NCBI GenBank assembly: GCA_031426335.1
Contig: JANPLC010000241.1
Location: 1,828 to 65,827, forward strand
Direction of reading: 5' to 3'
Length of the DNA stretch: 64,000 nucleotides
Origin: Planctomycetota bacterium
GTDB lineage: Bacteria; Planctomycetota; UBA11346
Shown here: in pieces, positions 13,435 through 64,000 of the stretch
Layout of the letters: each line of letters begins with the position of its first letter
Position numbering within the stretch: the stretch's first letter is position 1
Program-made: the position numbers and the translations under genes
Notes under the pieces: generated by a model
The model's input: the letters and a program-made list of their open reading frames with translations, nothing else
What the model was told of the DNA's origin: nothing
Database searches by the model: none

Positions 13435-13435
13435 A

Positions 13436-35368: not shown

Positions 35369-35384
35369 AAAGTTACCCCGCCTG
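35369..35384. repeat. Right copy of the 16-bp direct repeat AAAGTTACCCCGCCTG (candidate att core, junction between island and prophage)
   Basis: Identical to 11754-11769. On its right, 43 bp separate it from the stop of the prophage distal tail gene. Confidence 0.65.
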
Positions 35385-35427
35385 CATGGTGTACGAACCT
35401 TGACGGTCCGGCTTCCACGGCGGCCGG

Positions 35428-38124
35428 TCACGCTCCCGCGGCGTAGATTCGCGGGTCATAGGGCTGGCACGTCAACTCTACCTCGGTCTCGCTCCGGGGC
35501 ATGACCTTGGTGACCACCACGTCCTGGCACCATGTGGTCCCCGGTCCGAACAGGTAGGCGGTGCGGTCGCCGTTGGACAGGTCTAGCCGTGGGGTGAAGT
35601 CCAGCGCGCCCACCAGGGTGAAGGCGTTGGGGTTGTCGGCCACCTCGGTGACCGCCCACGGGCCGGAGAGGCTGCCGTCCGGCTTGCGGAGCCCGACGTA
35701 GTGCGCGCTGGAGGGCGTCCAGGTCAATGGCTCGCTGGTGGTGTAGGTGGTGCCGCTGATGGCCAGGAGCGCCCCGGATTGGCCCCAGGCGGGCACGTCG
35801 TGGCTGATGGCGATGAGGTCGCCCACCAGTGGGATATGGCCGTCCATTTCGGTAGTGAACCGGATAACCTTGCGCTGATAGGCATCGACGCGCGCCAGGT
35901 ACGTGGCCTCGCGCTGCGCCTGTGCTTGGTTGGTCACGCCGAACAGGTCGACCGATGCCGGCCGCAGCGGGGCGCCGCCGCCCACCGTCGCCTCAATGTG
36001 TGCTTGCCGCCAGGTGTTGGGGTCGATCCATGCCAGCTCGATGCCGTCCGGGTCGTCGGCCTGTCGGAATGTGTACTCAATTCCCAGGCTGCCCTTTTTC
36101 ATGTGCTGCGGGGAATAGAGCGCCGTGCGGATGGTGCGCGCTTGGTCGCGTACGAACGTCACCACGCCACCGCTAACGATGGGCGTTGCACGGCCAGCGC
36201 GGGCAATGCGCGTGAGCGTTTCCCATACCGTAATGGTCTGGTCAAAGACGCCGTCGAAAAAGTCGCCGCGGGCGGCCCAAATGCCGTCCAGCTCCAACAG
36301 CTTGGCCAAGTCGATCCGGCTCTCCGGTAGGTCGGCGCCGTAGTCGCCATTGCGCAACACGTCAGCGAGTGCCCATGCTGGTGAGCGCGTGGCCTGTGGC
36401 GCGCTCCAGGTGGCGCCGTTCCACACTGGCAGCTTGCGCGTGGCGATGATGTTGATTTGCCGCGCAACGTCCTGCGGGATTTGTTCGGTGGCCTTCACGC
36501 GCAGGGCGTACAGCGTTACGTCCGCGTAGGTGCCGACGCTCGGCAGATACCCGCGCATGCCTGCCCAGGTGGTTTCGTCGGGAATGTTGGCATTGAACGG
36601 TGACGCGGTGGTGCGACGGACGCGAACCTCCCAGCGATTGGCGGACGTTGGCGGATTGTAGCGGAAGGACACGCGCACCGCTGACAGGTTGTTGCGGGTG
36701 ATCGACTCCGTTCCCAGCGTGGTCCACGTGCCGGGGCCGGTCGGGTCGCCGTTGTTGTCGATCGGCCGCGCCTGGAACTCAACGCCCACGGTGTACTCCG
36801 CGCCGTTGTTGGTCAGTCCCTTGGCAAAAAGAATATCCAGGCCGATCGCCTGCAAGTCGGTGTTGGCCGCGTTCACCGGAAACGGGCCGACGTAGCCACC
36901 ACTGGCCAGGATGATGTACGGGTTGGCGAGCGTTTCGCCCACGATCGTTTCCAGCACGGTGGCGCTGGCGCCGCTGGGGTCGACGGTGTCGAGCGTGAGC
37001 GTTGCGTTGTTGCTCGCCGTGTTGCTGATGGTGATGGAGTCGCCGGGCTTGAGTCGGATAAATCGCTTGAGCGTCGGGTCTGAAATGGTCTTCGTTCCGG
37101 CGGTGAACGTGACGTTGCCGGCAATGATCAATGTAATATTGGGACCCGCCGCAACGGGGTCGCGCACCACGCTGGCAGCATTCGGAGATTCGTCAGTGAA
37201 CACGGACCCGCTTGCCGCCACCCACAGGCCACCGGCGTCCATGGTGGTGATCACGTGCGTTCCGGCGTTGGCGCAGTTGGCCAGTATGATGGAGTCACCC
37301 ACGAGGCAGTCGATAAAAAGCGCCGGGTTGTCGAGCGCGGTTATTCGCTTGGTCGCGGCGGTGATCTGCACGCGACCATTGCCCGGAAGGTTCGCGTCGT
37401 TGGTCGCGCGGAGTAGCTGACCCTGGACGAGGCTGGAGGTGCTGACGTTGTCTTCAAACAGCGTCAGCGTATCGCCGGGCGCCACGATCTGTGACGTAAA
37501 GTTGGACAGCCTGGTGACGACAGATTCAGCAATGCGGACCTCTTCAATGTCGAACTCTCCATTTCCGAGACAAAGCACCATAAAAAGGTATTGGTCGTTG
37601 CTGTCGTACTCGGTGTAGGGGTTGGCGATGAGGTCCGGCACGATGCGGTGGGTTCCATAGAGGGCCGGGATGGGCTCACCGATGCGGCGACGGTTGACCA
37701 CGTCGAGCGCGTAGGTTGGCGAACCGCTTTCAAATTGCAGCGCACTTGGGACGCGTGGCGTCTGGATCAGCAGCGATGAGGCGAGGCCGACCACGCCGCC
37801 AGCGATGAGCGCGACGCCGACGCCGGCCAGCGGGGTGAACAGCAGTACCGCGCCAATGGCTATCATGCCGATGGACACCCACATGCCGGCGTTTTTTCCA
37901 CCGGCCACTAGGCGCACGGCAACCACCGCGGCGCCGGATTCTATTGGGCGCTCCCACTCCGCTTGCAGCACCCACACGCCATTTATTGAAACCACGGCCG
38001 GGCGGCCGTCCGCCATGTCCGCAGAGCGCAGGCAATCGCGCACCGTGCGACCGGACGGCAACTCTGACAGCTCGCGGCGGTGCGGTTGGAACGGGTCGGC
38101 GCAGGCAAGCAGCTTTATGGTCAT
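35428..38124 (-). CDS. Tail tip / host-specificity protein (lambda gpI-like N-terminus fused to a gpJ-like body)
   Basis: Start at the internal ATG 38124 ('MTIKLLACADPF...') coupled to the upstream stop. The N-terminal ~120 aa with TM-like 'WVSIGMIAIGAVLLFTPLAGVGVALIAGGVVGLA' resemble tail assembly protein I. The remainder is a large J-like protein in terminal position. Confidence 0.7.
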   Translation of the reverse strand: MTIKLLACADPFQPHRRELSELPSGRTVRDCLRSADMADGRPAVVSINGVWVLQAEWERPIESGAAVVAVRLVAGGKNAGMWVSIGMIAIGAVLLFTPLAGVGVALIAGGVVGLASSLLIQTPRVPSALQFESGSPTYALDVVNRRRIGEPIPALYGTHRIVPDLIANPYTEYDSNDQYLFMVLCLGNGEFDIEEVRIAESVVTRLSNFTSQIVAPGDTLTLFEDNVSTSSLVQGQLLRATNDANLPGNGRVQITAATKRITALDNPALFIDCLVGDSIILANCANAGTHVITTMDAGGLWVAASGSVFTDESPNAASVVRDPVAAGPNITLIIAGNVTFTAGTKTISDPTLKRFIRLKPGDSITISNTASNNATLTLDTVDPSGASATVLETIVGETLANPYIILASGGYVGPFPVNAANTDLQAIGLDILFAKGLTNNGAEYTVGVEFQARPIDNNGDPTGPGTWTTLGTESITRNNLSAVRVSFRYNPPTSANRWEVRVRRTTASPFNANIPDETTWAGMRGYLPSVGTYADVTLYALRVKATEQIPQDVARQINIIATRKLPVWNGATWSAPQATRSPAWALADVLRNGDYGADLPESRIDLAKLLELDGIWAARGDFFDGVFDQTITVWETLTRIARAGRATPIVSGGVVTFVRDQARTIRTALYSPQHMKKGSLGIEYTFRQADDPDGIELAWIDPNTWRQAHIEATVGGGAPLRPASVDLFGVTNQAQAQREATYLARVDAYQRKVIRFTTEMDGHIPLVGDLIAISHDVPAWGQSGALLAISGTTYTTSEPLTWTPSSAHYVGLRKPDGSLSGPWAVTEVADNPNAFTLVGALDFTPRLDLSNGDRTAYLFGPGTTWCQDVVVTKVMPRSETEVELTCQPYDPRIYAAGA

Positions 38125-38522
38125 GCGCGGTCCCGGTGGCGGTAGAACTTGAACGATCCCCAGCCGACCACCGCAAGCGCGCGGATCGGCGCGACCGTCA
38201 CGCCGAGCGGTTCGGCGCAGTGTGCAACCAGTCCACCGTCCGTTGCCAGCCAAACGCCCACGTGGTGCGGCCGTGCGCGTCGCCCCATCGCCACCGCGTC
38301 ACCATCGCGCGGGATCGACACCGGGCACCACCGACCGCTGCCGGCCTCGGTGTAGGCAAAGGGAACGTCCCGTGCGGTGTCGCCTGCCACGTGGCCCAGC
38401 TCGTGCAGCTCGATTCCGTAGGCTTGGCGATAGACCAGGCGGAGGAACTCCCAGCAATCGAATGCTGGCGGCTCCCACGGTCGACCGACCAACGGCGCAA
38501 CGATGGCGGCGAGGTCAGACAC
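38121..38522 (-). CDS. NlpC/P60-family tail protein (lambda gpK-like)
   Basis: 'FDCWEFLRLVYRQ' (catalytic Cys) and 'PHHVGVWL' (His). Probable GTG start at 38522 overlaps the upstream stop. The ORF track's start at 38600 would overlap the upstream gene by 86 nt. Confidence 0.65.
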   Translation of the reverse strand: MSDLAAIVAPLVGRPWEPPAFDCWEFLRLVYRQAYGIELHELGHVAGDTARDVPFAYTEAGSGRWCPVSIPRDGDAVAMGRRARPHHVGVWLATDGGLVAHCAEPLGVTVAPIRALAVVGWGSFKFYRHRDRA

Positions 38523-39039
38523 GGGGCGCGAGCCCTGGGAACTCCTCAACCGTGTAGATGCGGCGAGGGAAACGACGGTTGAGGAAATCCGCGTGGGCAC
38601 ACATGCACGTCACCTGCATGGCGTCGGCTGAAATGCGCGTCACGTCGAGCGTCAGCGGCGGCGTCATTTGCGGCGCGGTGGTGTCGGTCGACAGGTACGG
38701 GCGATATGTTGCCTTTATCGGCGTTTCGCTGGCGAGGTCTGCGGCCTCCAGGAGCGGCATCAAAAGCTGTGCCACGTTGTCGATCTGGATTTGCAACTCC
38801 TGCCGGCCCTCGCCTACCTGTGGCAGCGTGAAGCGAAACGGGCAGGCGGTGAATAGCACGGCGTCGCCAGCGTCCACCGGCGCTTCGTCCTCCAGTGTGG
38901 CGGTCAGGTCTGCGAAGTCCGCAACCAGACGGATGGGGTCCGCCCACGTCGGATGCCATAGCTCCATGGTGTGGAGAATGACAACCGTGGGCGGCGCGCT
39001 GGCGTATGCCTCGGCAAGGGCCTCGGTGAGCGTTGCCAT
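38515..39039 (-). CDS. DUF1833-like minor tail protein
   Basis: Start ATG 39039 (TAATG overlap with upstream). 'VVILHTMELWHP..ADPIRLVAD...FTACPFRFTLPQVGEGRQELQIQIDNV' fits the DUF1833 pattern. Confidence 0.55.
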   Translation of the reverse strand: MATLTEALAEAYASAPPTVVILHTMELWHPTWADPIRLVADFADLTATLEDEAPVDAGDAVLFTACPFRFTLPQVGEGRQELQIQIDNVAQLLMPLLEAADLASETPIKATYRPYLSTDTTAPQMTPPLTLDVTRISADAMQVTCMCAHADFLNRRFPRRIYTVEEFPGLAPRV

Positions 39040-41087
39040 TAGTTTGGCACGTCGACGCCGGTTTGGGAAATCTGCACCCACGCCGAGCCAGTAAACTTGA
39101 AGCTAACGGAGCGATTCTGGCCATTCGCTGGGTTGGTCCATGCCGACTTGTAATAGGCTCCATCCCACGTGATGGCGCCTAATGCACCGCCGCTGCCATT
39201 CTTGATCGTCAGTGTGATAATCTGCCCAAGATTGCCCTTGGTTGGCGCGTTTATCGTGAACGCGGTTCCGTTGGTCGCCGTGATCTCAAACACGGTTCCG
39301 CTTGTCGCGTCCGGTGTCATCGACGCGGAATAGGTGATGGCGTTATTGCCATATCCGATCGTAGCGCCGGCATCCTTGGCAATCGCAGCGCCGGTCGTGT
39401 TTTTAATGATGTTACCCTGTTGATACAGGGTTGAGGTGTCCAATGCGTTGATGCCGTTCGTGGTGCTGTCACGAATGATGCAGTCTTTGACAAATGCCTC
39501 CGAGGCATTCTGTGTGATCACGCCATAGCTTCCGCCGCTGAGGTAAGACGACGCAACAACGTGCGCGGTTCCGTTCTGGAACTGAATGCATGCGTCCGTT
39601 GTTCCAGAAATGTGCGCGTCTTTCACCTGGACGCCTGCGCCGCGGTTGACAAGGATTCCTTGGGTAACGCCGCCACGGATGCGTATGTCTGAAAGAATTA
39701 GGCTCCTAACTTCACCGAATGCAGCAGTCCCGGAAACAAGAATTGCAGGACCAGGACCGCCGTACGTTGGAGTTTCTGCCGAGATAGTCACATCGGAGAC
39801 GATTGTATCCAAAAGGTTGCCGGCGTATGCGCCTGGGATGCCCACCTGGATAGCACCAACTGACCCAAGCCAGCCGAGCACGGAAAGCCCATTAATCACG
39901 TTGCCGTGCCTGTCGCTTCCGTTGGCATTGGTGATCGCCGCGCCTGCCCCGCAGTAGCGAGCGGTACAGCCAGAAATGATTCCATTATTGGACGACTCCA
40001 ACACGAAACCGGTGTCCGTGCAGTTCGTCGCAATGCAGCCTATTATTACGTTCTGCTCGCCGCTCGTAAATATGGCGTCGGCATCTTTCGACGGAGAAAG
40101 CCCCGCCTCTCCGCAGTCAATGATAACACACCCCTCAAGGCGGCAGCGGGTTGATTGACCGGCGGCGAAAAGTGCAACGGCGGAGCCGCCGTTGTATCCC
40201 AGGGCATTCTGTGCGCGCACGTTGATGAGGTGGCATTCGGTGCATGCGCTAAAGCCTGCGCACATATAACGGATGGACTGGCTAGCTTTTCGGTTGTCCT
40301 TGTTGGCGTCAAAGTTGATGTCCCGAGCGACAACTCCGGCCCTTCCGGTTGCTAGCAACATATATTCAAACTGCGTTGATGCCTTGGCCTTGATGAGGGC
40401 GGGACCTCTGATTGTCACGTTGTCCGTGCCGGGGGTTAGTTGACTACCAATGATATAGGTTCCGGCCTGGAACCGCAGAGTCCCATAGGCCGGCGTTGCA
40501 TCAATGGCGGCCTGGATTGCGGTGGTGTCGTCCGTTGTTCCGTCTCCCTTGGCACCGAACCACCGAACGTCTAGCTCGCCGTCGTAGACACGAAGCCAGC
40601 GGCCGGTTGCTGGCGCGGCGGTCGGGATGATGACCGTCCCGCCGTTATCGGTCACGCTCGATGCACTGTCCCAGCGGAAAATGCCGCCGCCGAGGTCGCC
40701 GGCCGCGTAGTAGCCAAGCACCAGAATTGTCCCGTAGGTATTGGCTGCGGCCTTGAGGAGGGCCATGGTGTCCACCACTGACGTGGCGGTGTAATGAACT
40801 ATCCACTTTCCTGCGGCAAGATCGTTAGCGAAGGCCGCCGCGGAGGTGTGCGCGGTGACACAACGGTAAGCGGTCCCGCTCGACGTTACCACCTCGCCCA
40901 GCGCGTACGCGGTTAGCGTCACCCAGGCGCCGCGCACAGTTCCGGCGCCCATGCTGGTGAGGAGTCGCGCAAGACTTGGAACCTGGCCGCCGTCCGTCGC
41001 CACCGTGGTGGCCGCGTCGCCGTTTACGATCTGTTGCAGCTTCGGGCGATCCAAGGCAATGCGGGCGATGTCGGTTGCAAGGCTCAT
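39039..41087 (-). CDS. Tailspike/fibre with pectate-lyase-3-type right-handed beta-helix (putative polysaccharide depolymerase)
   Basis: 'LDVRWFGAKGDGTTDDTTAIQAAIDA...GTLRFQAGTYII' is the Pectate_lyase_3 hallmark. It is followed by repetitive beta-helix-like 'N.I.G....' segments. Confidence 0.7.
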   Translation of the reverse strand: MSLATDIARIALDRPKLQQIVNGDAATTVATDGGQVPSLARLLTSMGAGTVRGAWVTLTAYALGEVVTSSGTAYRCVTAHTSAAAFANDLAAGKWIVHYTATSVVDTMALLKAAANTYGTILVLGYYAAGDLGGGIFRWDSASSVTDNGGTVIIPTAAPATGRWLRVYDGELDVRWFGAKGDGTTDDTTAIQAAIDATPAYGTLRFQAGTYIIGSQLTPGTDNVTIRGPALIKAKASTQFEYMLLATGRAGVVARDINFDANKDNRKASQSIRYMCAGFSACTECHLINVRAQNALGYNGGSAVALFAAGQSTRCRLEGCVIIDCGEAGLSPSKDADAIFTSGEQNVIIGCIATNCTDTGFVLESSNNGIISGCTARYCGAGAAITNANGSDRHGNVINGLSVLGWLGSVGAIQVGIPGAYAGNLLDTIVSDVTISAETPTYGGPGPAILVSGTAAFGEVRSLILSDIRIRGGVTQGILVNRGAGVQVKDAHISGTTDACIQFQNGTAHVVASSYLSGGSYGVITQNASEAFVKDCIIRDSTTNGINALDTSTLYQQGNIIKNTTGAAIAKDAGATIGYGNNAITYSASMTPDATSGTVFEITATNGTAFTINAPTKGNLGQIITLTIKNGSGGALGAITWDGAYYKSAWTNPANGQNRSVSFKFTGSAWVQISQTGVDVPN

Positions 41088-41090
41088 AGG

Positions 41091-41588
41091 TCAGGGTCCT
41101 AGCGGTGCGATAGAGTCAGCGGGATATTGCACGTGGCAAAAGCTGTAGAGAGACAGCGCATCGTTGGCGTATTCAAACACGCCTTCCGCCAAGAGTCCCT
41201 CAAGGTCTCCGGCTGAGAGCTGCGGCATCTGGTCGACCTCGACCTCCCAGGACACGCGCCACACGTCCGGGCTGATCATCTGCGACTTGAACGGAGCGAC
41301 GCCGCGCACCGTCCACACGTCATCGGAAATGCCGTTGCGCAAAATGATGTTGCACCACGCGGAGCCGTCGCCCAGCGTGCCGCGCCAGAACCCGTCAAAG
41401 AGGCCGTATTGCAGGCGGGTGAAATTGAAGTTGAGAGACGCCGTGGTCATCTGCCGTGTGAAGCGACGACGCACGCGCGCCGTGGCGTTGTCCATGTCGG
41501 TGCGAATGGTCGACGGCATCGGCTGTAAGCCGTAGCCATCAGCGAGCGGACGCGGCAGGTACTTGATTGGCCACGCTGCAACGGTCAT
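41091..41588 (-). CDS. Minor (distal) tail protein, hypothetical
   Basis: 165 aa, directly after the tape measure gene with an ATGA overlap. Assigned by position only. Confidence 0.45.
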   Translation of the reverse strand: MTVAAWPIKYLPRPLADGYGLQPMPSTIRTDMDNATARVRRRFTRQMTTASLNFNFTRLQYGLFDGFWRGTLGDGSAWCNIILRNGISDDVWTVRGVAPFKSQMISPDVWRVSWEVEVDQMPQLSAGDLEGLLAEGVFEYANDALSLYSFCHVQYPADSIAPLGP

Positions 41589-43738
41589 CGGCTTGACCCC
41601 CGCGAACGGTTGAGGCCGTACGTGGTTTGCATGGTCTTGCTGACCGGCCCCACGCCGCTGGCGATGTCGCCGGCCATGCGGTTGGACACCTGCTCAATAA
41701 TGAGGTCTATGCGTGGGGCGCCGCCCTCGCCGGTGCTTTCCTCGCTGCGCGCGGCCATGCCGGGCGGCGTGTGGACGTGGACCTCCACGGTGGGCTTGCC
41801 GCCTGCGGGTCCGCCTGGGGTGACTTGGCCGCCCTTGTTGCCCATCATAAGGAACGACTTGTCCCCGACCGTGAGCATTTCGGGGCCGCGCTCGTTCACT
41901 TGGTACATGCCGCCGCGCGAGACCGGACCACCGTTCGCGCGGCCTGGCGGTTCCTGGCCGGCGATCTGCGCCACCGCGGCCATGCCCGAGGCCAACGCCA
42001 TGCCGGCGAATACCTGCGCCATCATCGGGTTGCTGATCAGTGCCGGGCTGGCCAGTGTGTTGGAGTATGCCATCCACGCGTTGACCGTGGCTTGTGCCAT
42101 CGCCGCGCCGCGGTTGAGATAAAAAAGTCCCTTGCTGCTTTCGGCTCCCTCCGCGGTGAGCGTGTCCATGTTGCCGAAAAAGTCAGAGGTGGCGCCGAGT
42201 AGCGCCATCTGCTTCTTGCGCTCGGCCTCGATCTCCTCGGAGTTGGTGGCGTTGCGTGCGGCCACCGTCTCCGCCACGCGTTTCTTTTCTTTGGCCTTGG
42301 CGCGCTCCTCGGCCTGGGACTTGATGGTGATGATTGCCGCCTCGACCTTGCCCAGGTTGGCAAGGCGCTCCTGGTCAATCTGGTTGAGGTCGTAGACCTC
42401 GGCGCGCATGTTGTCGGTGAGATTCTGACGCCATCCGGCAATGGTGGCGTTGGCCTCTGGCAGCGTGGTGAAGGCCTTGCCCAATCGACCCAACGCGGCG
42501 CCGGCATCGTCGGCAGCGTTGCCCATCATGATGCCCGTCACCACGAGGTCCTGCGCGGCTTCCTTGCGCATTTCTTTCGTGGTGTCGCTCAGCGACTTGG
42601 CCGCGCTGGACAGGCTGGCGCTCAGGCTCTCCGACACGTAGCCGGCGGCGTCCGCCAGCTTGGTGATCATCACCGACGCGGCCTGTCCGAGGTTGTCCAG
42701 CACCACCAGGAGGCCCAGCTTCATATTCTGCCACACGTGCTTGATGGCCGCGGCCACCATTTCACCGCCGAACTTGACGGTATCCCACGCTGCATTCCAT
42801 ACGTTGGCGATCATCTGCCCGGTTTGGGTGATGTTCGATGCGGCGGCCAGAACCTTGTCCGTCATCCACATGACGCCGATACGCAGCGCGGACCACACCT
42901 CACGCAGGCGCATCCACACGTCATAGACGCCGACGCCGCCGCGGATGCCGGCCTCCACGAGTGCCGCGATCTGCGAGCGGAAGCCGTTGGACTCGCGCGC
43001 CGTGTTGAGGAACTCGTGGCCCAGCTCGGTGATGTAGGGCGACAGCTCCGACGTAACGCGCAGGCCAAGCGATTGGACGACGGACTCCACCTGCGCGAGG
43101 ACGGTCTTGGCCTCGGTGATCTGGCCAATCTCCGCGCCGGTGAGCGCGATGCCTAACGCCTTCGCGTCCTCTGCCGCCTGCTTCAAGCCGGCGGATCCGT
43201 TGTTGAGCATGGGCAGCATTTCCATGCCGCCCTTGCCGAACAACTTCACCGCGGTGGCGGCTTTTAGGCTGGCGTCGCCGGTCGCCTCAAAGCGGTCCGC
43301 GATGATCGCCAATTGCTCGTCGGTGCCCTTGCCCTTGAGGTCGTCCAGGCTGAGGCCGATGCCACGGAGCGCGCTCTCGACTTCCGGCGAGCCGTTGCGC
43401 AGTGCCACCATGGCCTGCTGCATCTTGCCCATGCTGGTGGCGAACTTCTCGCCCGTCATGCCGGTTTGCACCGCGGCCAAGCGCATGCTCGCCATGGCTT
43501 CGGCCGTCACGCCCATTTGCTCCGCCTGGTCCTCCAGCGCGTCCGCAATATCCATGTTGGTTTTGATGAACGACGCCGCGGCCTTCACCGTGGCGACAGA
43601 CGCCCACACGCCGACCAATCCCAGGACGGTATTCTTGAACGCGGCCACCTGCTTGGAGGCCTCGCCAAACGCCTTCGTCATCTTCTCGTGCGATGCACTG
43701 AGGACGACTTGGACGGTACCGATCGTGGTGTTAGCCAT
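41585..43738 (-). CDS. Tail tape measure protein
   Basis: 717 aa, Ala/Gly/Met-rich and helical, with 'GLVGVWASVATVKAAA' hydrophobic segments. Lies immediately downstream of the G/GT chaperone pair. Confidence 0.8.
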   Translation of the reverse strand: MANTTIGTVQVVLSASHEKMTKAFGEASKQVAAFKNTVLGLVGVWASVATVKAAASFIKTNMDIADALEDQAEQMGVTAEAMASMRLAAVQTGMTGEKFATSMGKMQQAMVALRNGSPEVESALRGIGLSLDDLKGKGTDEQLAIIADRFEATGDASLKAATAVKLFGKGGMEMLPMLNNGSAGLKQAAEDAKALGIALTGAEIGQITEAKTVLAQVESVVQSLGLRVTSELSPYITELGHEFLNTARESNGFRSQIAALVEAGIRGGVGVYDVWMRLREVWSALRIGVMWMTDKVLAAASNITQTGQMIANVWNAAWDTVKFGGEMVAAAIKHVWQNMKLGLLVVLDNLGQAASVMITKLADAAGYVSESLSASLSSAAKSLSDTTKEMRKEAAQDLVVTGIMMGNAADDAGAALGRLGKAFTTLPEANATIAGWRQNLTDNMRAEVYDLNQIDQERLANLGKVEAAIITIKSQAEERAKAKEKKRVAETVAARNATNSEEIEAERKKQMALLGATSDFFGNMDTLTAEGAESSKGLFYLNRGAAMAQATVNAWMAYSNTLASPALISNPMMAQVFAGMALASGMAAVAQIAGQEPPGRANGGPVSRGGMYQVNERGPEMLTVGDKSFLMMGNKGGQVTPGGPAGGKPTVEVHVHTPPGMAARSEESTGEGGAPRIDLIIEQVSNRMAGDIASGVGPVSKTMQTTYGLNRSRGSSR

Positions 43739-44730: not shown

Positions 44731-44754
44731 GGGGTGGTCCTTGGGTGTGGTTGG

Positions 44755-45273
44755 TCAGACGGCGGCGGCAATGTGCTTGCGCACGTCGTCGTGGATGGTG
44801 GTGGTGAACGGCCCGGCACCTGGGCGGACGCTGCGTTCCAGCATTTTCGCGCCGCCGGCTTGGCGCGTCATGCGGCCTTTTGGGCTGTGGCCGGCCTCGA
44901 TGCCGTAGGCGTATTTCCACGCGTCGGCGCGATCGACGGCCACGCCCTTGGCAGCGGCGGCCAGCACCGACTTGTGTGCGCGTCCGCGGCGCGTCACCAG
45001 GCGCTTGTTGCCGCCGGTGTCCTTGAACGTGAACGAGGAACGCGGCTCGATCGTCACGCCCACGGATCCGGTGCGGCCGTCGAAAAATGCCGACGTGCCC
45101 CAGCTCGCGCGCAGCTTGCCGGACTTCACCGGCGTGGCGGCCTTCACGGAGGCGAGCATGGGCTTGGCGCCCTGCTTGGTCGACTTCCGCAGCATCTTGC
45201 GGAGCGGTCCCATCTGCGTCGTGGCAAGAGCGCGCCGGATGCTGGGGTCTGCTTTGATCTCAACGACGATCAT
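44755..45273 (-). CDS. HK97 gp10-like tail-completion/neck protein
   Basis: Internal ATG at 45273 ('MIVVEIKADPS...') coupled by ATGA. 'AATPVKSGKLRASWG...YAYGIEAG' resembles the HK97 gp10 family. The ORF-track N-terminal extension is out of context. Confidence 0.55.
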   Translation of the reverse strand: MIVVEIKADPSIRRALATTQMGPLRKMLRKSTKQGAKPMLASVKAATPVKSGKLRASWGTSAFFDGRTGSVGVTIEPRSSFTFKDTGGNKRLVTRRGRAHKSVLAAAAKGVAVDRADAWKYAYGIEAGHSPKGRMTRQAGGAKMLERSVRPGAGPFTTTIHDDVRKHIAAAV

Positions 45274-48735: not shown

Positions 48736-48782
48736 GGCTGTGGGGTGCTTTCTTTTTTACTTGGAGGTGTTGGTGGTGGTGA

Positions 48783-51258: not shown

Positions 51259-51261
51259 ATT

Positions 51262-52137: not shown

Positions 52138-52140
52138 TGC

Positions 52141-55279: not shown

Positions 55280-55292
55280 GTTCGTCCCTTGG

Positions 55293-55610: not shown

Positions 55611-56170
55611 GCATCCTCCAGCGGCCTAGCCTGAAACGTCACGCCCTGCGGCTTGTCGAACTCCAGCCTTGCCGCCCCCACAATTATCAACTCCCGGTAG
55701 TTGTCCCCCTTGAATATATGGAAGGCGTAGCGGCCGTCCTTTTCCACGTTCACTGTTAAAACCTGCTCAACTGGTGACCGTATAAAAATTGAAATAATTT
55801 CCCCGCTGTATTGAACCCCACATTCCGTCTCCGCATTCCTCCATCCTGTGCTTCCGGCGAGGAAGACCGCCGCCCGCCTGTCTTTTTGGCCCTCGCTCCT
55901 TCGCTCCGCTTCCCGCTTCGACTCCCGCTCTTTGCGCTTACCATTTTTTTTATCTCTTATTTTTTTTGCTTTTCTTCTAAGAATTTTCATTGCCTCTTCG
56001 CCCATCTTGCCCATCACCTCCGCCGGCATCATCCCACATTTACGCGCAATGCTCCCTGGTGACTTTCTGCCGATATATAGCCGCAACATTTCCGCGGCTG
56101 TCATCTTGGCCTTTGTCGCCTGTCCTTTTGGTGTGCTCATTTTTGCGCTTCCTTTGTTTGGGTTTTTCAC
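55607..56170 (-). CDS. Hypothetical protein with a Lys/Arg/Glu-rich linker (low-GC patch)
   Basis: 187 aa. ATG overlaps the terminase stop (ATGA). 'KILRRKAKKIRDKKNGKRKERESKREAERRSEGQKDRR' is encoded by A8/T8 runs at ~55944-55968. Confidence 0.5.
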   Translation of the reverse strand: MKNPNKGSAKMSTPKGQATKAKMTAAEMLRLYIGRKSPGSIARKCGMMPAEVMGKMGEEAMKILRRKAKKIRDKKNGKRKERESKREAERRSEGQKDRRAAVFLAGSTGWRNAETECGVQYSGEIISIFIRSPVEQVLTVNVEKDGRYAFHIFKGDNYRELIIVGAARLEFDKPQGVTFQARPLEDA

Positions 56171-58311
56171 AGCTTGGACCCGTAGCCGGAGAGCCAGCCG
56201 CCGCCCGATGGGCGCGGACGACGCGGCGGCGGCACTGGCCGCGCTGACGGCGCCGCGGCGGTGGTGCGCTCCTGGGCCTTGCCGGCCGGCGTGCTGGTGG
56301 TCTTTTCTGCGTTCGCCTGCGCGCGTTTGACCACGGCCTTTTCATCGAGCTTGCATCCCATGATGGACGCGGCCACCGCCGAGAGCGTCAACGTATCGAG
56401 CCAGTGGTTTTCCTGGTTCGGTTTTTTCTTCCATTGCTCGGACACGCGACCATTCGCGGCCACTCGCGTGCGTAGCTCGCTGCTCAGATGATCCGCCAGC
56501 ATGCGGTGGTCCGATGCCTTGCCGTAGATTCCAAGCGACGTGTATTGCCCGGCGGGGTCCAGGATTCTGTCGGCAACAAATGATTTCCAGCGGTCGGCGT
56601 CAAACAGGCAATGCCGCGTCTGTCGCATGGTTGGCTTGGGGATGCGCCACGATGCACCGATGCGCTCGCCTGGTTTTTTCTTCCACTCGTCCATGGGCGT
56701 GGCGCCGGCTGCGACCGCACGGCCGAACGACGGCAAGAGGATGGCGCTGTGATCGGACTGGCGGCAGAACTTGTAAACCGTGTCCGTTGATTCCCCATAG
56801 CCGGCGTCGATCAACACGCGCTCCACTCGCGCAACGGTGCCGTCGTCGCGCTTCCATTCCTGGCCGCACAGCGTGGCCACCAACGCCTCCAGGCTGGCGT
56901 ACAGCGCGGCCGGCCATGATGCGCCGTCGTGCGCTTTCGCCATGGTGCGCTCCACTTGCGGCAGCGTGAAGTATGGGCGGCCCTGTTCCGGGTAAGCGCC
57001 GTAGCTGATCACGTCGCCACCAAAGGCGGGATTCCAACCGGCCACCGTGTAGAGTAGTATTTTTTCCTGCACGTCGATGCCCACGGTTAGGACGGAATCC
57101 TCCACCGGCACAACGCCGCGCTCTGCGTTGGTGGTCTTCCGCAGCACGGCCGCGGCGGTGATCTGCACCACCTCGCCGGATGCGTACGGGTCTTGCGGTG
57201 AGTTTTGATACTCCGCGGCGAATGCGGCCTCCCCTCGCTTGATACGCAGGTTCATCGCGTGTTGAGTCGCGGAGATTTCCGCCGGCTCGTGCCGCTGTGG
57301 CCATGCCGGCATGGCGCCCGCGTCCATCTCCTCCCGGTGCTTCACATAGAACGCCGTCGACTGGTCGTGCGGTTTTTCGGTGCGCATCTCCTCGCGGAGC
57401 ATCTCGGCATATTCGTCCCACAGCTTTGTCGCCGTGGGCATCGCGTACATGAGCGAGCACTTGAGGCCCTGCCACTCGGGATGCAGCGCGCGGTCTAGGA
57501 GCTGGTCGGCAAGGTCGCCCTTTTCAATTATCGTGCAGGTGACGGCCGCGCTGATTTTCTGACCCGGACCCGCCAAGCCCAGGATGGTGCTGGCCAGCGT
57601 CTTCATGCGCGAGGCGACTTGCGCCGGGCTCTTGGCGCTCTTGTCGGTCTGCGGATCGTCGACCAGGACCAAGTCGGGCCGCACCTGGGAGCCGTCAGAC
57701 AACGGAGCCTTGGCGCCACGGATGCGGCCGGTGATGCCGGCGGTGCGGATGACGGAGCCGCCGCCTGGCGCGGTATTCGGTAGCCGTACCTCGTTCTTGG
57801 TCCAGATGAGGTGGGTGCGCTCGCCCTCGCTCGTCTGCCCTTCGGCACGGCGGGCGATTCCTTCAAGCGCACGGATGGCGTGGACCGCGTCGGGAAAGTC
57901 CTCGCCCAACAGGTCGTTGCCGTCCAGCTCGGCGCGCAGGTTTGAGCAAATGGATTCAGCGGCGGCGGCGTCGGAAGCGACAACGAATATAAACCGGCGG
58001 TGCCCGTTGAGGATCGCCCATAGGCACGCGACCTCGCACACCGTCGTCTTGCCCGAGCCGCGCGGCATCGCCACGGCGAACTGGCCGCCGTCGAGCACCG
58101 CGGATTGCAGGAGCTTGATCGCCCGCAAGTGATCGTTGGAAAACTCCAACACGAACCGCTGCGGAAAATACGTGCGCGAGAATGCGAGGAGGTCGCGGGC
58201 GCACTTCTTACGGCGCTTCGGATTCTTCGGCGGCGGAGGTGCGCCAACGTCACGGCCAGCGGCGCGACGCTCAGCGGTTTGGAGCACTCGATCGGCGGAG
58301 CTACTCGGCAT
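56167..58311 (-). CDS. Terminase large subunit (GpA family)
   Basis: 714 aa. Walker A 'AMPRGSGKTT'. 'LVLVDDPQT' Walker B-like. Size and position are typical of lambda GpA-type terminases. Confidence 0.85.
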   Translation of the reverse strand: MPSSSADRVLQTAERRAAGRDVGAPPPPKNPKRRKKCARDLLAFSRTYFPQRFVLEFSNDHLRAIKLLQSAVLDGGQFAVAMPRGSGKTTVCEVACLWAILNGHRRFIFVVASDAAAAESICSNLRAELDGNDLLGEDFPDAVHAIRALEGIARRAEGQTSEGERTHLIWTKNEVRLPNTAPGGGSVIRTAGITGRIRGAKAPLSDGSQVRPDLVLVDDPQTDKSAKSPAQVASRMKTLASTILGLAGPGQKISAAVTCTIIEKGDLADQLLDRALHPEWQGLKCSLMYAMPTATKLWDEYAEMLREEMRTEKPHDQSTAFYVKHREEMDAGAMPAWPQRHEPAEISATQHAMNLRIKRGEAAFAAEYQNSPQDPYASGEVVQITAAAVLRKTTNAERGVVPVEDSVLTVGIDVQEKILLYTVAGWNPAFGGDVISYGAYPEQGRPYFTLPQVERTMAKAHDGASWPAALYASLEALVATLCGQEWKRDDGTVARVERVLIDAGYGESTDTVYKFCRQSDHSAILLPSFGRAVAAGATPMDEWKKKPGERIGASWRIPKPTMRQTRHCLFDADRWKSFVADRILDPAGQYTSLGIYGKASDHRMLADHLSSELRTRVAANGRVSEQWKKKPNQENHWLDTLTLSAVAASIMGCKLDEKAVVKRAQANAEKTTSTPAGKAQERTTAAAPSARPVPPPRRPRPSGGGWLSGYGSKL

Positions 58312-58407
58312 CGGACACCGCCAGGGACATCAACACGCAGATTGTTGACCCCGCCATGTGCCAGCTATGGCGCCCCCAGCGGGGGAGGACCCGTTGCGCT
58401 AGGGCGT

Positions 58408-58644
58408 TCATGGCTCGCCCCTGTTCAACAGCGCAGCAGGGCCGTGCATCCAGAATGTCCACCATGCCAACGTTCCCTCGCCTGCTGTCCACGTGTCGGT
58501 TGTGATCGGCTCCATGCAGGCCTCGCGCATCACGTCGCACACCTCGTCCATCGTCGCGCCCTCTGGCGTGACCACAGCGGCGCGCACGTACTGGTGCAGC
58601 GCCATCGCCTCAATGAGGAGAGCCATGATGCGCCAGCGGTTCAC
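58408..58644 (-). CDS. Hypothetical protein (possible small terminase-region gene)
   Basis: 78-aa ORF coupled by ATGA to the upstream gene. No motifs. Confidence 0.4.
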   Translation of the reverse strand: MNRWRIMALLIEAMALHQYVRAAVVTPEGATMDEVCDVMREACMEPITTDTWTAGEGTLAWWTFWMHGPAALLNRGEP

Positions 58645-58838
58645 GACTCGTTCCCTCTGTCGATGCGGTCGCCGTCATCCTGTGCCACGTGCATGTCCTC
58701 CGGTTTGCCGTCAATCTCACCTGTGCGCTGCCACTCAGTCCCGCGCACCTCCGCCTTGGCCTTGGCCTCGTCCTCGGAGTCTGCATACACGATCGTCTTG
58801 ATGCTGACCCTCACCGTTGCTCGCACGCACCATCTCAT
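58641..58838 (-). CDS. Hypothetical small protein
   Basis: Internal ATG at 58838 coupled to the upstream stop. Acidic C-terminus. Confidence 0.35.
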   Translation of the reverse strand: MRWCVRATVRVSIKTIVYADSEDEAKAKAEVRGTEWQRTGEIDGKPEDMHVAQDDGDRIDRGNES

Positions 58839-59002
58839 TGGCACACCAACGACGCGCGATTGCACTGCTGCACCCGTTCGTTGTGGATCTGGCGCGCCTC
58901 GATCTGAACCAGCACGCGCCTCATACTTGGCGCCGTTCTTTTGATGTGGCGCATGACCAGACGCGCGGCCTGTTTCGATATTCTGCCGTAGACTATTCGC
59001 AT
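58835..59002 (-). CDS. Hypothetical small basic protein
   Basis: Internal ATG at 59002. 'RISKQAARLVMRHIKRTAPSMRRVL'. Confidence 0.3.
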   Translation of the reverse strand: MRIVYGRISKQAARLVMRHIKRTAPSMRRVLVQIEARQIHNERVQQCNRASLVCQ

Positions 59003-59208
59003 GGGCGCTCCGGATGCATGGCGTTGCCGAAAATCAGATGATCCGGACCGGGCGGCGTGCGGGCCATTTCGTTCCAATCGCAGTCCAAACACCTATGCAT
59101 TTTCACGCGCGCTGGCGGGTTGCTGCATCTGGTTGCCCAGCGAGCAATCACGCGCACCGATCGACAGCGAGCGCACATGATGACCACCGGCAGCGAGGGC
59201 GCATTCAT
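58993..59208 (-). CDS. Zinc-ribbon protein
   Basis: 'CARCRSVRVIARW...HRCLDCDW' (CxxC...CxxC). The start is coupled (ATGA) to the HNH gene stop. Confidence 0.45.
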   Translation of the reverse strand: MNAPSLPVVIMCARCRSVRVIARWATRCSNPPARVKMHRCLDCDWNEMARTPPGPDHLIFGNAMHPERPCE

Positions 59209-60398
59209 CGGCTTACCGCTGCGCCGGCCAAGCCGTCCTCGCCATCAACCCGCGGCGACTCGTCCACCACGATGCCAAGCTCACCAAGGAGCGACGCGGC
59301 CAGCGCCCTGCGCTTCGCCATGCTGTGCGTGTGCCATGCCGCCAGCGCCATACGGAAGCCCTTGGGCATTCGCACCGGGTCCTTGAGTGATCGCCGCCAG
59401 GCCAGAACGGCGGCGATCTCGCCCACTTGCATGCCGTCCGTGTCGCGTGCCCATTCGCCCTCCAGCCCAGGCGTGACGTTGAACGCAGCCACCACGGCCA
59501 TGGGGTCGCCGGCCTCCACCGCGCGCTTGAGCGCATCGGCGTCCAGTGCGTTGGCGCGCTGCCCTAGGACACTCGCGCTGGCCGCCTTGGCGGCTGGCCG
59601 TGGCGCATCGTGCGCCGGCTCGCCGTCCACCGTGAAGCACGGCGACGGCGGCGGCGTAGGAGAGGGATCTGATCCGATCCGATCTGATCCGATCTGATCT
59701 CTCCGCGACGAAACGTGCCGCGCATCGCGGTTCGTCGCGGCGTTGAAACGCATTTCATCCGCGTTTCCGTCCGTGCCTTCCTCCAGTGCCGTTTTCCTGG
59801 CGTGGCACGTCCGGCACAGCGTGGTCAAGTTGCTAGGGTCATTGTCTCCACCGGCTTCCAGCGACACCACGTGATCGCAATGGAGGTCGTCCACGCCTCC
59901 GCACCCCTCGACGGTGCACCTCCAACCGTCTCGTGTGAACACGTGCGCGCGGAGCTTCGCCCACTCGGCCTCCGTCATGCCGCGGCTATTGCGCCAGCGC
60001 CGGAGACGCTCGGCATCCTGCTCACGCTTGCGCTTCGCTGACTGTTTCTGGCCGGCGGCCTCGATCGCCTTGGCCGCAACCACGGGGTGATAGAGGCGGC
60101 CATCCGAGCACAGCACCCAGCCGCGCAGGCCGCCGGCCTCGCGGACTTTCTGCCAGCCTTTCACGTCGCGGCCGAATCCAAGATTGCGAGCCAACCACTT
60201 GTCATCGTTCGGCAGGCTCGCCGCCGGCACCTGGTGCCACGACACGCACCACGAGAGCACGGCGACACGGAACGCCTCGGCCTCTGGCAGGCCGGACAAC
60301 TCGCTGTCGCGCAATCGCACGACATCCAGCGCCATGTACTGGAAGCCGCGTAGGTCGACGTGTGGGGGAACGGGTGGGTCTGGTAGCGTTGTGGTCAT
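59205..60398 (-). CDS. DUF1376-like / HNH endonuclease / C-terminal domain fusion protein
   Basis: Preferred start is ATG 60398; the ORF track's 60437 overlaps the upstream gene. 'FQYMALDVVRLRDSELSGL..EAFRVAVLSWCVSW' is DUF1376-like. 'WRCTVEGCGGVDDLHCDHVVSLEAGGDNDPSNLTTLCRTCHARKT' is an HNH motif. Confidence 0.75.
   Translation of the reverse strand: MTTTLPDPPVPPHVDLRGFQYMALDVVRLRDSELSGLPEAEAFRVAVLSWCVSWHQVPAASLPNDDKWLARNLGFGRDVKGWQKVREAGGLRGWVLCSDGRLYHPVVAAKAIEAAGQKQSAKRKREQDAERLRRWRNSRGMTEAEWAKLRAHVFTRDGWRCTVEGCGGVDDLHCDHVVSLEAGGDNDPSNLTTLCRTCHARKTALEEGTDGNADEMRFNAATNRDARHVSSRRDQIGSDRIGSDPSPTPPPSPCFTVDGEPAHDAPRPAAKAASASVLGQRANALDADALKRAVEAGDPMAVVAAFNVTPGLEGEWARDTDGMQVGEIAAVLAWRRSLKDPVRMPKGFRMALAAWHTHSMAKRRALAASLLGELGIVVDESPRVDGEDGLAGAAVSR
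59666..59700. repeat. Pentanucleotide tandem repeat (GATCY)x7 inside a coding sequence
   Basis: gatct gatcc gatcc gatct gatcc gatct gatct. Seven GATC sites in 35 bp, encoding 'RDQIGSDRIGSD'. Confidence 0.9.
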
Positions 60399-60402
60399 TG
60401 GT

Positions 60403-60861
60403 CTAGGCTTGCTGGTTGGTTTTTGTAACGGCGACAAATGGCCCCGGCGTCAGGTTCGGCGGAAGGTCCGGCACATCGCTGGCCGTGATCACAAACGAAA
60501 GCGGCGGCCTCATGCACTCGGCAACCACCAGTCGCTCCGTGGTCTTTTCCAGCTCGTCCAGCAAGAGACGAACAAACGGCCCCAGGCGCATGCCCGCCAT
60601 CACCGCGGCCTGGGCCATCACGTTGTTGCGGTAACGATCGCGCCCCACCGTCTCAATGGTGACTGGTCCGCCATCATGCTCCGGCGCTCCCAGCGTCGCG
60701 TTGCACGTCTCGCATCGGCGCTCGTGCCGCTTACGCTGATGAATGCCGCACTCCTCACACAGCACGGTGGGCGATGGCGCAGGCGCCGGCACAAAGCCGC
60801 GGTCTAGATGCTTGGGATATGCCGGCCACGGCTCGCTGCCCGCTGTTCCTTGTCGCGTCAT
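60403..60861 (-). CDS. Hypothetical protein with a zinc-ribbon motif
   Basis: Internal ATG at 60861 (ATGA coupling). 'LCEECGIHQRKRHERRCETCNATL'. Confidence 0.45.
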   Translation of the reverse strand: MTRQGTAGSEPWPAYPKHLDRGFVPAPAPSPTVLCEECGIHQRKRHERRCETCNATLGAPEHDGGPVTIETVGRDRYRNNVMAQAAVMAGMRLGPFVRLLLDELEKTTERLVVAECMRPPLSFVITASDVPDLPPNLTPGPFVAVTKTNQQA

Positions 60862-61265: not shown

Positions 61266-61269
61266 GGCG

Positions 61270-62474: not shown

Positions 62475-62632
62475 CCGTGCGCCCTCCCGGCCATGAAGCC
62501 GCACAGCACGCACAGCAACGGGAACCACAGCCAAATGGTCATGCCGGCGATGAGCACCAGCGGCAGACAGACGAGGCCGAACGCCTGGACGGCCGTATCC
62601 AGGCCGCGAACGACGGAGCGCAGTGCGGTCAT
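62471..62632 (-). CDS. Small two-TM membrane protein
   Basis: Internal ATG at 62632, coupled on both sides. 'AFGLVCLPLVLIAGMTIWLWFPLLCVLCGFMAG'. Confidence 0.4.
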   Translation of the reverse strand: MTALRSVVRGLDTAVQAFGLVCLPLVLIAGMTIWLWFPLLCVLCGFMAGRAHG

Positions 62633-63948
62633 GCCGCACCCTTTTGCGCCGCCGGCAGGTTCGCCGCCACGATTGCGCGAGCGACGGGCGGACACACCGC
62701 GTTGCCGATCCGCTCAACCTGCTGCGCTATGGTTCCGTCCAGCTCGTAGCTATCTGGAAAGCCCATCGCTCGCGCCAGCTCGCGCGGAGCGAGCATGCGC
62801 GTTCCGATGTCGACCACGAACCGCTCCACGCCATCGGCCAGGACCACGCACACCGGACGCAGTCGACCGGCGACGGTTAGCCACCGCACCGGCGCGTCCG
62901 GCACGAATCGCAGCACCCAACGCGCAACACGGACCGCTGCGCCGATGTCGTTCCCCGCCTGTGCCTGGACCAATCCCAAGCGCGCCTTGCAGGTGATGGT
63001 GTGCGCCGGTTGGTCGCATCGCTGCCACTGCCCGCCGCTCTTGTAGAACTTCACCAGGAACGCGAAGCCCACCGCATGATGGTCGCGCGTGGTAATTGTC
63101 CCAAGCGGCCGGCGCATGTCGTGACCGATGACGCCCGTGTAATGCTTCACCACCCACGCCGCGCCCTTCGGCACCATGTAGGGGTTCCCGCCCAGCACGT
63201 AGCGCACAAACCCGATGGCCTGCCGCTTCTGACTGTTGAGTGCCGGCGGTTTCTTGCCGAAAATCGAACGCGGCTCCTTGCTCCAGTCGATGCAGCCGCC
63301 AACGGTCAGCCACGGCCGCGCAAGGCCTGGTCCATGCGTCGCCGCCGGCCACGTGATCGGCTCGCCGTCGCAGCGCATGACCATGTAGAGCCGGCGGCGA
63401 GTGGTCGGCGTGCCGTAGTCGCAAGCGTCCAGCTCGCGCCATTCGATTTCATAGCCGCGCGTCCGTATCTTCTCCACGAACTCAGCGAACAGCCGCCCGC
63501 GCTTCTCCGGTATTGGCTGCCCGCGCTCGTCCAGGTCGCCCCAATCCTGGAACTCCTCGACGTTTTCCAGCGATGCGATGCGCGGGCGCACTTCATCAAT
63601 CCACTTGACCAACACATTGGCCAACCCGCGGCGCTGGTTGTCGCGCGGCTTCCCGCCCTTGGCCTTGCTGTGGTCCGTGCAATCGGGGCTCACATGAATC
63701 CAGCGGTAAAAGCCGGACCCCATCTCCTGGCTGAGGTGAAGTTGCCAAACGTCTTCCAGGAAATGGCGCGTCCCGGCGTGATTGCGCCCATGCAGATGGA
63801 TCGCGTGCGCGTCGTGGTTACATGCCCAATCCACCGGCTTGCCCGCGGCCTGCTTGAAGCCTTCGCACCAGCCGCCGAATCCAGCAAAGCCGCAGCCGTC
63901 GATGCCTTCGGCTGGAATCACGGTGCAACCTCGCCCATCACGGGGCAC
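62629..63948 (-). CDS. DNA (cytosine-5) methyltransferase
   Basis: Motif I 'GFAGFGGW', motif IV-like 'HVSPDCTDHSKAKGG', motif VI 'LENVEEF', and a late 'GNAVCPPVA' (motif X). GTG start. Confidence 0.8.
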   Translation of the reverse strand: MPRDGRGCTVIPAEGIDGCGFAGFGGWCEGFKQAAGKPVDWACNHDAHAIHLHGRNHAGTRHFLEDVWQLHLSQEMGSGFYRWIHVSPDCTDHSKAKGGKPRDNQRRGLANVLVKWIDEVRPRIASLENVEEFQDWGDLDERGQPIPEKRGRLFAEFVEKIRTRGYEIEWRELDACDYGTPTTRRRLYMVMRCDGEPITWPAATHGPGLARPWLTVGGCIDWSKEPRSIFGKKPPALNSQKRQAIGFVRYVLGGNPYMVPKGAAWVVKHYTGVIGHDMRRPLGTITTRDHHAVGFAFLVKFYKSGGQWQRCDQPAHTITCKARLGLVQAQAGNDIGAAVRVARWVLRFVPDAPVRWLTVAGRLRPVCVVLADGVERFVVDIGTRMLAPRELARAMGFPDSYELDGTIAQQVERIGNAVCPPVARAIVAANLPAAQKGAA

Positions 63949-64000
63949 ACCACGCCAGCCTTGGCCAGTTGCTCCGCCTCCGTGGCATTTCCTCCGGCCG

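Follow-up and report, generated by a model that had tools for sequence, protein, structure and literature searches.

Tandem accretion of islands and prophages at a single tRNA gene has been catalogued by Islander-type analyses. Such arrays show direct repeats of the tRNA 3' end between the elements, a displaced tRNA fragment at the distal end, and an integrase gene at the end of an element. We describe a locus with these same features in a 64,000-nucleotide stretch of DNA from a Planctomycetota bacterium (GTDB lineage UBA11346; GenBank assembly GCA_031426335.1, contig JANPLC010000241.1, positions 1,828 to 65,827 of the forward strand), hereafter the window, where a 23.6-kb island (11770-35368) abuts a phage structural module that occupies 35428-64000, all of it on the minus strand. 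Our reading, to which we give a probability of roughly 77%, is that two unrelated integrative elements are stacked at one tRNA-Gln(UUG) 3' end in a Planctomycetota-like host. The locus differs from the catalogued arrays in that the neighbours use different recombinase superfamilies, and in that the end of the array with the intact tRNA is not seen. An earlier note, made from the sequence alone, had proposed tandem integration at one tRNA-type attB and, beyond that, a satellite/helper relationship between the two elements. All coordinates refer to the window, and labels such as L002, L083, or L085 denote matched metagenome, viral, or reference contigs.

Other described systems resemble parts of the locus. 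Phages with large serine integrases, such as Listeria A118/LI, phiC31, and Bxb1 (PMC3783163, PMC8092301), have a dyad attP of about 50 bp beside a gene for an integrase with Resolvase, Recombinase, and zinc-ribbon domains, and the same holds for relatives of the phage in the window; the relatives differ in that attP lies inside the 3' end of the integrase open reading frame (ORF), and in that their integrase shares at most 29% identity with the serine integrases of cultured phages. The Ralstonia filamentous phage phiRSM likewise pairs a serine-family recombinase with a tRNA-derived core, in that case a 13-nt attP/attB core that is the 3' end of tRNA-Ser (PMC3816273), but its enzyme is of the small resolvase/invertase type and the phage is an inovirus, whereas here the enzyme is a large serine integrase of about 520 amino acids (aa) and the phage is tailed. 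Placement of attP within an ORF, such that integration alters the C-terminus of the product, is known from SSV-type archaeal integrases (PMC8371274) and from integration-dependent immunity in mycobacteriophages (PMC8092301); those systems use tyrosine recombinases, whereas here only what looks like a dispensable tail of a serine integrase would be affected. P4-like satellites and PICIs (phage-inducible chromosomal islands; PMC10085698) share with the island an integrase, a small helix-turn-helix (HTH) regulator (a weak match in the island), a primase-helicase, and the lack of virion genes. The island is larger than these satellites, is dominated by a toxin-like gene, and carries a rare integrase containing an HTH_8 domain.

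The two elements are connected by a 16-mer, AAAGTTACCCCGCCTG, found in exact copies at 11754-11769 (left core) and 35369-35384 (right core). No third copy occurs within the window when up to two mismatches are allowed, with 0.02 matches expected in shuffles. The right core is separated by 43 bp (35385-35427) from the stop codon (35428-35430) of a minus-strand ORF for a J-like tail protein, and its minus-strand flank reads ...AAGGTTCGTACACCATG|CAGGCGGGGTAACTTT; the earlier note had described both the position and the flank correctly. Because several unrelated exact 15-16-mers are common to island and phage by chance in this GC-rich DNA, the significance of the core rests on its position and not on the match alone. 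A chance origin was dismissed on that basis: the left copy forms a tRNA-like 3' end beside an integrase gene, while the right copy falls where the homology of six related phage contigs stops.

Read on the minus strand, the left core (CAGGCGGGGTAACTTT) runs from the end of the T-stem through the 3' acceptor strand and the discriminator A into the trailer CTTT. It belongs to a tRNA-Gln(UUG)-like sequence that lacks the D-arm (11757-11813, minus strand). The Rfam tRNA model aligns end to end to 11813-11758 with 26.9 bits, below its gathering score of 29 bits, and the alignment lacks 15 D-arm positions, that is, the whole D-arm; ARAGORN, run over the whole window, called no tRNA. The identity of the block was settled by comparison with native tRNA-Gln(TTG) genes, recovered by a metagenome scan for the T-arm and acceptor of the left block. 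The 46 nt at 11757-11802, anticodon stem through discriminator base, match the 3' 46 nt of one native gene (L106) at 100% identity and those of four others (L104, L105, L107, and L108) at 93-95%. By this match, the core is the 3' end of tRNA-Gln(UUG) together with the four trailer bases CTTT.

On the island side of the 46-nt block, 11803-11813 (TACCCCGGAC) is a remnant of the 5' acceptor strand, with which the block still forms a perfect 7-bp acceptor stem. In one island relative, L088 (about 885-945), this stem is degraded to five of seven pairs, and in two others, L085 and L002, there is none. Since L088 has a degenerate copy of the 5' remnant and L085 and L002 have none, the block without a D-arm looks like a decaying captured tRNA; the possibility that it is the chromosomal tRNA gene itself was rejected because the remnant, where present, is found on the side of the island. 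On the same strand, a terminator-like hairpin (11640-11662, minus strand) follows the tRNA-like 3' end at a distance of about 95 nt downstream and has a 9-bp stem with seven GC pairs and the T-rich tail CTTTTCTTTT. We take this hairpin to be the terminator of the native tRNA-Gln gene, which would mark the DNA there as chromosomal (the B' side). Past the hairpin are genes of kinds typical of Planctomycetota, namely ECF sigma, FecR, and DUF1080-type genes.

The right core coincides with the end of a phage genome. The J-like protein has about ten close relatives, and in six of the contigs that encode them (L083, L109, L111, L112, L113, and L115; J 71-91% identical) the DNA shares homology with the window from the head genes as far as 35368/35369, where the homology ends. 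This agrees with the expectation in the earlier note that a prophage ends beside the tail gene. A seventh relative, L114, has a different serine integrase (551 aa), lacks the attachment site described below, and loses homology to the window at the J stop codon. In all seven relatives, J is contiguous with a serine integrase gene and no island is present, which is the unintegrated arrangement.

Past J, the six relatives share a conserved site of about 51 bp, GGTTCGTAC-N6-CAG(G/A)CGGGGTAACTTT-N11-GTACGAACC, followed by a convergent integrase gene. Written with the window core, the site reads GGTTCGTAC-N6-CAGGCGGGGTAACTTT-N11-GTACGAACC, with 9-bp terminal inverted repeats. Its size and symmetry are those of a serine-integrase attP; this site is the phage attP, and the window retains its recombined half, attR. 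The window has the P half and the core, then island DNA in the position of B': the P-arm (GGTTCGTACACCATG, 35385-35399, minus strand) holds the outer GGTTCGTAC motif, one of the 9-bp inverted pair, and the right core forms the central part of attR at the prophage/island junction.

The product of the convergent gene is, in five of the six relatives, a full-length large serine integrase with Resolvase and Zn_ribbon_recom domains (521-533 aa; L109 12642-14207, L111 12645-14213, L112 12612-14213, L113 7871-9436, and L115 12033-13631), and early-type genes come next. The sixth, L083 (IMG/VR contig 3300043409_001777), is the closest relative, with a J protein 91% identical, yet its integrase ORF (12735-13904) lacks the N-terminal resolvase catalytic domain. 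It may be a defective or mis-assembled copy; the idea that this recombinase fragment is a separate degenerate element was dropped, as the five relatives with the same site have a full-length integrase there. In this phage family attP falls within the serine integrase ORF, where it encodes ...GSYISPGKLPRLHGVRT...; in four contigs for which the distance was measured, 41-51 codons separate it from the ORF end. The ORF itself terminates within J, which is read from the other strand. The window accordingly retains a remnant of this gene, the last 39 or so residues, at 35358-35468 on the plus strand (tblastn match to L109 integrase residues 482-520, 67% identity, E-value 3.5e-8), while the same tblastn search with the L109 integrase found no other part of the gene in the window. 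Integration into tRNA-Gln, modelled as attL, shortens the integrase from 521 to 495 aa (...KLPRLDSNQE*). As a side observation, the best GenBank matches of the relatives' integrase (about 29% identity) are records of about 11 kb labelled 'Mycolicibacterium phage', unusually small for tailed phages.

Several features tie this attP to tRNA-Gln. The tRNA 3' end plus CTTT makes up its centre, with 16 identical nt in the window and in L109 and 19 in L112. The attP core of L115 (about 12135-12190), CCATGCGGGGTAACTTT, matches instead a T-stem variant (CATGG/CCATG) of the tRNA block beside the island relative L085 (about 1440-1490), and attP therefore tracks tRNA-Gln variants. An outer motif, GGTTCG(T/A)A, precedes CAGG by 15 nt in attP, counted from the start of the motif, and by 10 nt in tRNA-Gln. 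Serine-integrase sites characteristically have the outer, zinc-ribbon-domain (ZD) motif shifted 5 bp toward the centre in attB when compared with attP (PMC3783163), and the presumed attB here resembles those of A118/LI, phiC31, and Bxb1 in this respect. The faint likeness to a T-loop that the earlier note saw in the 43-bp flank is thus real: the outer motif of attP accounts for it, at a distance from the core 5 bp greater than that of the T-loop in the tRNA. We propose that the T-loop of the tRNA, GGTTCGAAT, would act as the outer ZD motif of attB, 5 bp nearer the crossover than GGTTCGTAC in attP. The inward shift is found for the B half only.

The island has its own set of integration features. 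Its tyrosine integrase (11971-13308, plus strand, 445 aa; Pfam PF00589 4e-16, PF02954 3e-8; PHROG integrase 7e-32) has a Fis-type HTH_8 domain (residues 242-265) inserted ahead of the catalytic domain, and by eye the motifs CRISE, HALRH, GHTS, and RSY appear to fit the R..HxxR..H..Y catalytic residues. Homologues are few, with six at E < 1e-20 among 5.8 billion proteins; one is from a metagenome-assembled Planctomycetota genome, the only relative of this integrase met among reference genomes, and the others are metagenomic. All four island relatives with genomic context, at integrase identities of 66-89% (L088 89%, L085-087 81%, L002 66%), have the same tRNA-Gln 3' block, oriented divergently from the integrase gene. 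Their outer flanks differ right after GGGGTA(A/G)CTTT(T), and the block of L085 carries a compensatory T-stem change, the CATGG/CCATG variant noted above. No second att copy turned up in L085 or L002, both of which are on short contigs.

The exact 9-mer AGTTGATAT occurs three times in the window (11893, 11904, and 35311), always at the island ends, with a one-mismatch copy at 35300. These form two pairs in the same orientation: AGTTGATAT-GG-AGTTGATAT upstream of the integrase gene (11893-11912, plus strand) and AGTTGATAC-AA-AGTTGATAT at the opposite end (35300-35319, plus strand), 50 nt inside the right core. On the integrase side, L088 and L085 have the pair too, with its distance from the core unchanged, and a comparable pair, two copies of GTTGCAATG, occurs in L002. 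The pairs are most simply read as putative arm-type integrase sites on both att arms, and 11770-35368 is therefore a discrete integrative element. It thus shows what is expected of a tRNA-targeting tyrosine-integrase island: a recombinase gene at one end, direct repeats of the tRNA 3' end (46 nt and 16 nt), and arm repeats on both sides. At the end opposite the displaced fragment, where an intact tRNA would be expected, ARAGORN finds none in the window, and the phage P-arm holds that position. A sigma-70-like promoter, TTGATA-17-TAAAAT (11895-11923), overlaps the arm-type repeats upstream of the integrase gene, an overlap that would let the island integrase regulate its own expression.

These observations can be assembled into one arrangement, which on the minus strand would read as follows: a tRNA-Gln gene that is not seen; a core; a siphovirus-type prophage of about 37 kb that runs from the serine integrase and early genes through the large terminase to J; the core at 35384-35369; the 23.6-kb island, in the order HTH protein, primase-helicase, toxin/immunity genes, tyrosine integrase, and tRNA block; the core at 11769-11754; and then the native tRNA trailer, its terminator, and the chromosome. 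The island would integrate by a heterobivalent-type tyrosine integrase, using an attP with a 46-nt copy of the tRNA 3' end and paired arm sites on both arms. The phage would integrate by a large serine integrase, using the ~51-bp attP between J and the integrase gene, inside the 3' end of the integrase ORF. If the island arrived first, the phage integrase would have used the tRNA restored at the island attL, with island DNA as B'; if the phage arrived first, the island integrase would have acted on a site with only 16 nt of the tRNA. Either order of arrival yields the observed structure.

The far end of the prophage, still with its own integrase and the intact tRNA, is inferred to lie to the right. 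The layout predicted there agrees with the conserved order J, attP, and convergent integrase in the related phage contigs. The first 8-10 kb past attP in the relatives, which hold the integrase and early genes, have no match in the window, and the far end must therefore lie off the contig, which runs no more than 4.5 kb past the window end. If tandem integration is correct, that end reads tRNA-Gln...CAGGCGGGGTAACTTT-N11-GTACGAACC-int, at least 8-10 kb to the right of 64000. Loss of the phage would leave the island alone as tRNA-core-TTAAATAGC, the excised island circle would read ...GGTTCGAATC-core-TTAAATAGC, the empty site would read tRNA-core-GTAATCGCAAG, and the excised phage circle would join J, attP, and the integrase gene. 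What was proposed earlier as tandem integration at one tRNA-type attB is therefore well supported, in particular as to the shared tRNA-Gln core and the prophage end; the parts of that proposal not seen are the third core, the intact tRNA, and the prophage integrase.

Several points weigh against this reading. The window contains neither a third core copy nor the intact tRNA, and it also lacks the integrase of this prophage. Serine integrases usually have common cores of 2-8 bp, typically 5-8 bp, and target ORFs, not tRNA genes (PMC8092301), whereas the core shared by attP and tRNA here is 16-19 bp, atypically long, and the presumed attB is a tRNA 3' end; in both respects the locus departs from A118/LI, phiC31, and Bxb1. 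Neither the native trailer nor the island arm, either of which could supply the B' half-site, showed a convincing inverted outer motif on inspection by eye. No attL form (tRNA-core-P') of any relative turned up in viral contigs or among metagenome tRNA-Gln matches, so that the case for tRNA-Gln as a serine-integrase attB rests on the attR in the window, on sequence identity, and on covariation. As for the island, its integrase gene adjoins the displaced tRNA fragment and not the end that faces the intact tRNA. Integrase genes at the displaced-fragment end are less common than those next to the intact tRNA.

The most serious alternative, which we nevertheless consider unlikely, is that the phage is a truncated remnant: the island tyrosine integrase, or some other event, recombined with the tRNA-like phage attP, the serine-integrase side was then deleted or rearranged, and the phage is not, or no longer, at an intact tRNA-Gln gene. 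In its favour, the island integrase could use the phage attP, which mimics the tRNA core over 16 nt, as a pseudo-attB; the window lacks the body of the serine integrase gene; and decay of this integrase does occur, as in L083. However, had the island simply inserted into attP, the P' arm (GTACGAACC) and the integrase gene would lie past the left core, where the terminator followed by chromosomal ECF-sigma and FecR genes is found instead. The break falls exactly at the centre of attP, as expected from the action of the phage's own integrase, and all phage genes visible in the window are long open ORFs.

Tandem integration at tRNA-Gln leaves room for a looser coupling between the elements. Tyrosine integrases that target tRNA genes usually cross over in the anticodon loop or the T-loop. 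If the island integrase does so, no precise excision of the island would be possible while the phage is in place. Only 16 of the 46 nt of tRNA sequence remain at its tRNA-proximal att site, which the serine integrase of the phage would have split. One could then suppose that the island excises only after or together with the phage, and that integration, by swapping the C-terminus of the serine integrase, ties the behaviour of that integrase to the integration state. We regard this as a speculative proposal with little chance of being right; if it were, phage induction would license island mobility without classical hijack genes. We infer instead that the two elements are functionally independent.

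A full satellite/helper pair, with an island that relies on the phage to be induced and packaged and a tandem position that results from this partnership, appears very improbable and finds no support here. The island does carry an integrase, a small HTH protein with a weak likeness to Xis/AlpA (34759-34983, minus strand; HTH_17 at 20.7 bits, below the 27-bit cut-off), a VapE/D5-type primase-helicase (32568-34010, minus strand; Pfam PF05272 9e-20 and PHROG helicase/primase families), and no virion genes of its own, and it abuts a phage with a full structural module, which separates it from the tRNA-proximal part of its att site, such that island excision could be gated by phage excision. Two further genes (28888-31150, minus strand) encode proteins with N-termini that by eye are hydrophobic and signal-peptide-like, and both proteins show weak tail-fibre PHROG matches (2e-11 and 1e-10); these matches fall where the first protein has a Pfam glycine-rich domain, and we did not count them as satellite evidence.

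Against a satellite role, Pfam and PHROG searches of all island ORFs found no capsid, terminase, redirection, or capsid-size genes, no P4-like Psu, Delta, Sid, or Ash/epsilon, and no packaging or capsid module of the PICI/cfPICI kind (TerS, Ppi, Cpm, or an own capsid). Nor does the island have a helper-like cos site: no island-phage match exceeds 16 nt over 35369-64000, which includes the HNH/terminase region where cos would lie. Its size (23.6 kb) and content (14.4 kb in a single toxin gene) are atypical. The island relatives and the phage relatives come from non-overlapping samples, and all seven phage relatives have J contiguous with the serine integrase gene and no island (six share the attP; L114 differs). 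The recombinases are unrelated, a tyrosine integrase in the island and, as inferred from relatives, a large serine integrase in the phage. The remaining fit is to the 'Type C' pattern of integrase, AlpA, and primase alone, and the SatelliteFinder authors regard such an integrase/HTH/primase-helicase set as unreliable and too unspecific (PMC10085698). The earlier note had called the side-by-side position of the two elements typical satellite geometry; here it is fully explained by the shared attB. Adjacency to the helper is not known as a typical property of satellites.

An assembly chimera, in which a metagenome assembler joined phage and chromosomal or island contigs at a shared repeat, is scarcely credible even though the contig probably comes from a metagenome-assembled genome and the join falls on a repeat, given that a repeat of 16 nt (19 at most) is shorter than the k-mers assemblers generally use, that the join has the exact structure of a recombinant attR, and that the far arm of the island has its own arm-type sites right beside it.

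The visible part of the prophage is a tailed-phage structural module read entirely from the minus strand. Its last structural gene, J, encodes a central tail fibre or tip attachment protein of 898 aa (35428-38124; PHROG 469 6e-151; Pfam FNIII-A_GpJ and Phage-tail_3). Next come tail tip genes (38121-41087) for an NlpC/P60 (gpK-like) protein, the counterpart of a DUF1833 gene, and a beta-helix tail spike; these were identified by profile matches and by synteny with L109 and L111, the DUF1833 counterpart being assigned by synteny with the relatives. Profile matches identify the remaining modules: a tape measure protein (717 aa) and a 165-aa virion protein (41091-43738); head-tail joining genes (HK97 gp10-like and Phage_attach; 44755-46114); a head module with major capsid protein, protease, head protein, and portal (47584-54179); a packaging module with the large terminase (TerL) and an HNH endonuclease (56167-60437); and a phage C5 cytosine methyltransferase (62629-63948), beyond which the prophage runs past the window end. 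The TerL region is 100% identical to an independent 3.6-kb Logan contig, and the raw reads SRR20217183 contain an identical TerL. A TerL search of viral contigs found no relative, and the methyltransferase proved too generic to single out related phages. The description of the prophage as lambda-like suits the architecture of the tail tip; elsewhere it does not carry over, as no GenBank phage has a capsid protein with more than 30% identity to its own.

The cargo of the island is dominated by a single ORF for a polymorphic-toxin-like protein of 4788 aa (14493-28859, minus strand), which at 14.4 kb makes up about 60% of the island. The predicted protein has a signal-peptide-like N-terminus, DUF1349 and PKD domains, at least nine Calx-beta repeats, a PT-HINT domain, and a C-terminal tip of about 160 residues. 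The adjacent gene (13950-14480, minus strand) encodes a SUKH-1 (SMI1/KNR4) immunity-type protein recognized by domain search, and 13950-28859 would thus be a giant polymorphic toxin/immunity pair. The GC content drops from about 0.65 to 0.47-0.50 across 13-20 kb, which covers the C-terminal third of the toxin and the immunity gene, and this suggests that the two form a swapped-in module.

Two further contigs with tRNA-Gln sequences came to light. A viral contig (L103, IMGVR_UViG_3300020202_000113, which is Ga0196964_10000178, 44.8 kb; also L096, 1706-2938) has the same 46-nt tRNA-Gln block directly beside an ordinary tyrosine integrase of 388 aa, and represents a third type of element aimed at tRNA-Gln. 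On the AT-rich phage contig L102 (about 3945-3990), a tRNA-Gln gene is followed by ACTTTATAAATAG, which resembles the start of the island far arm, ACTTTTTAAATAG, probably by coincidence.

In itself the arrangement is of an ordinary kind: mobile elements stacked up at a tRNA hot spot. Less ordinary are the use of a serine integrase with a long tRNA-derived core, the position of attP inside the integrase's own ORF, and the poorly explored host phylum. The locus cautions against taking an island with an integrase and a primase next to a prophage as a sign of satellite behaviour when the two elements merely share an attachment site. It also sets exact prophage and island boundaries in a Planctomycetota-like genome; the mobile elements of this group have hardly been described. 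The 3' end of tRNA-Gln appears to be targeted by at least three types of element: an island with a tyrosine integrase, a siphovirus with a serine integrase, and a phage with an ordinary tyrosine integrase. The phage family provides a candidate large serine integrase with a defined attP/attB and an unusually long tRNA-derived core, and such enzymes are of interest for genome engineering.

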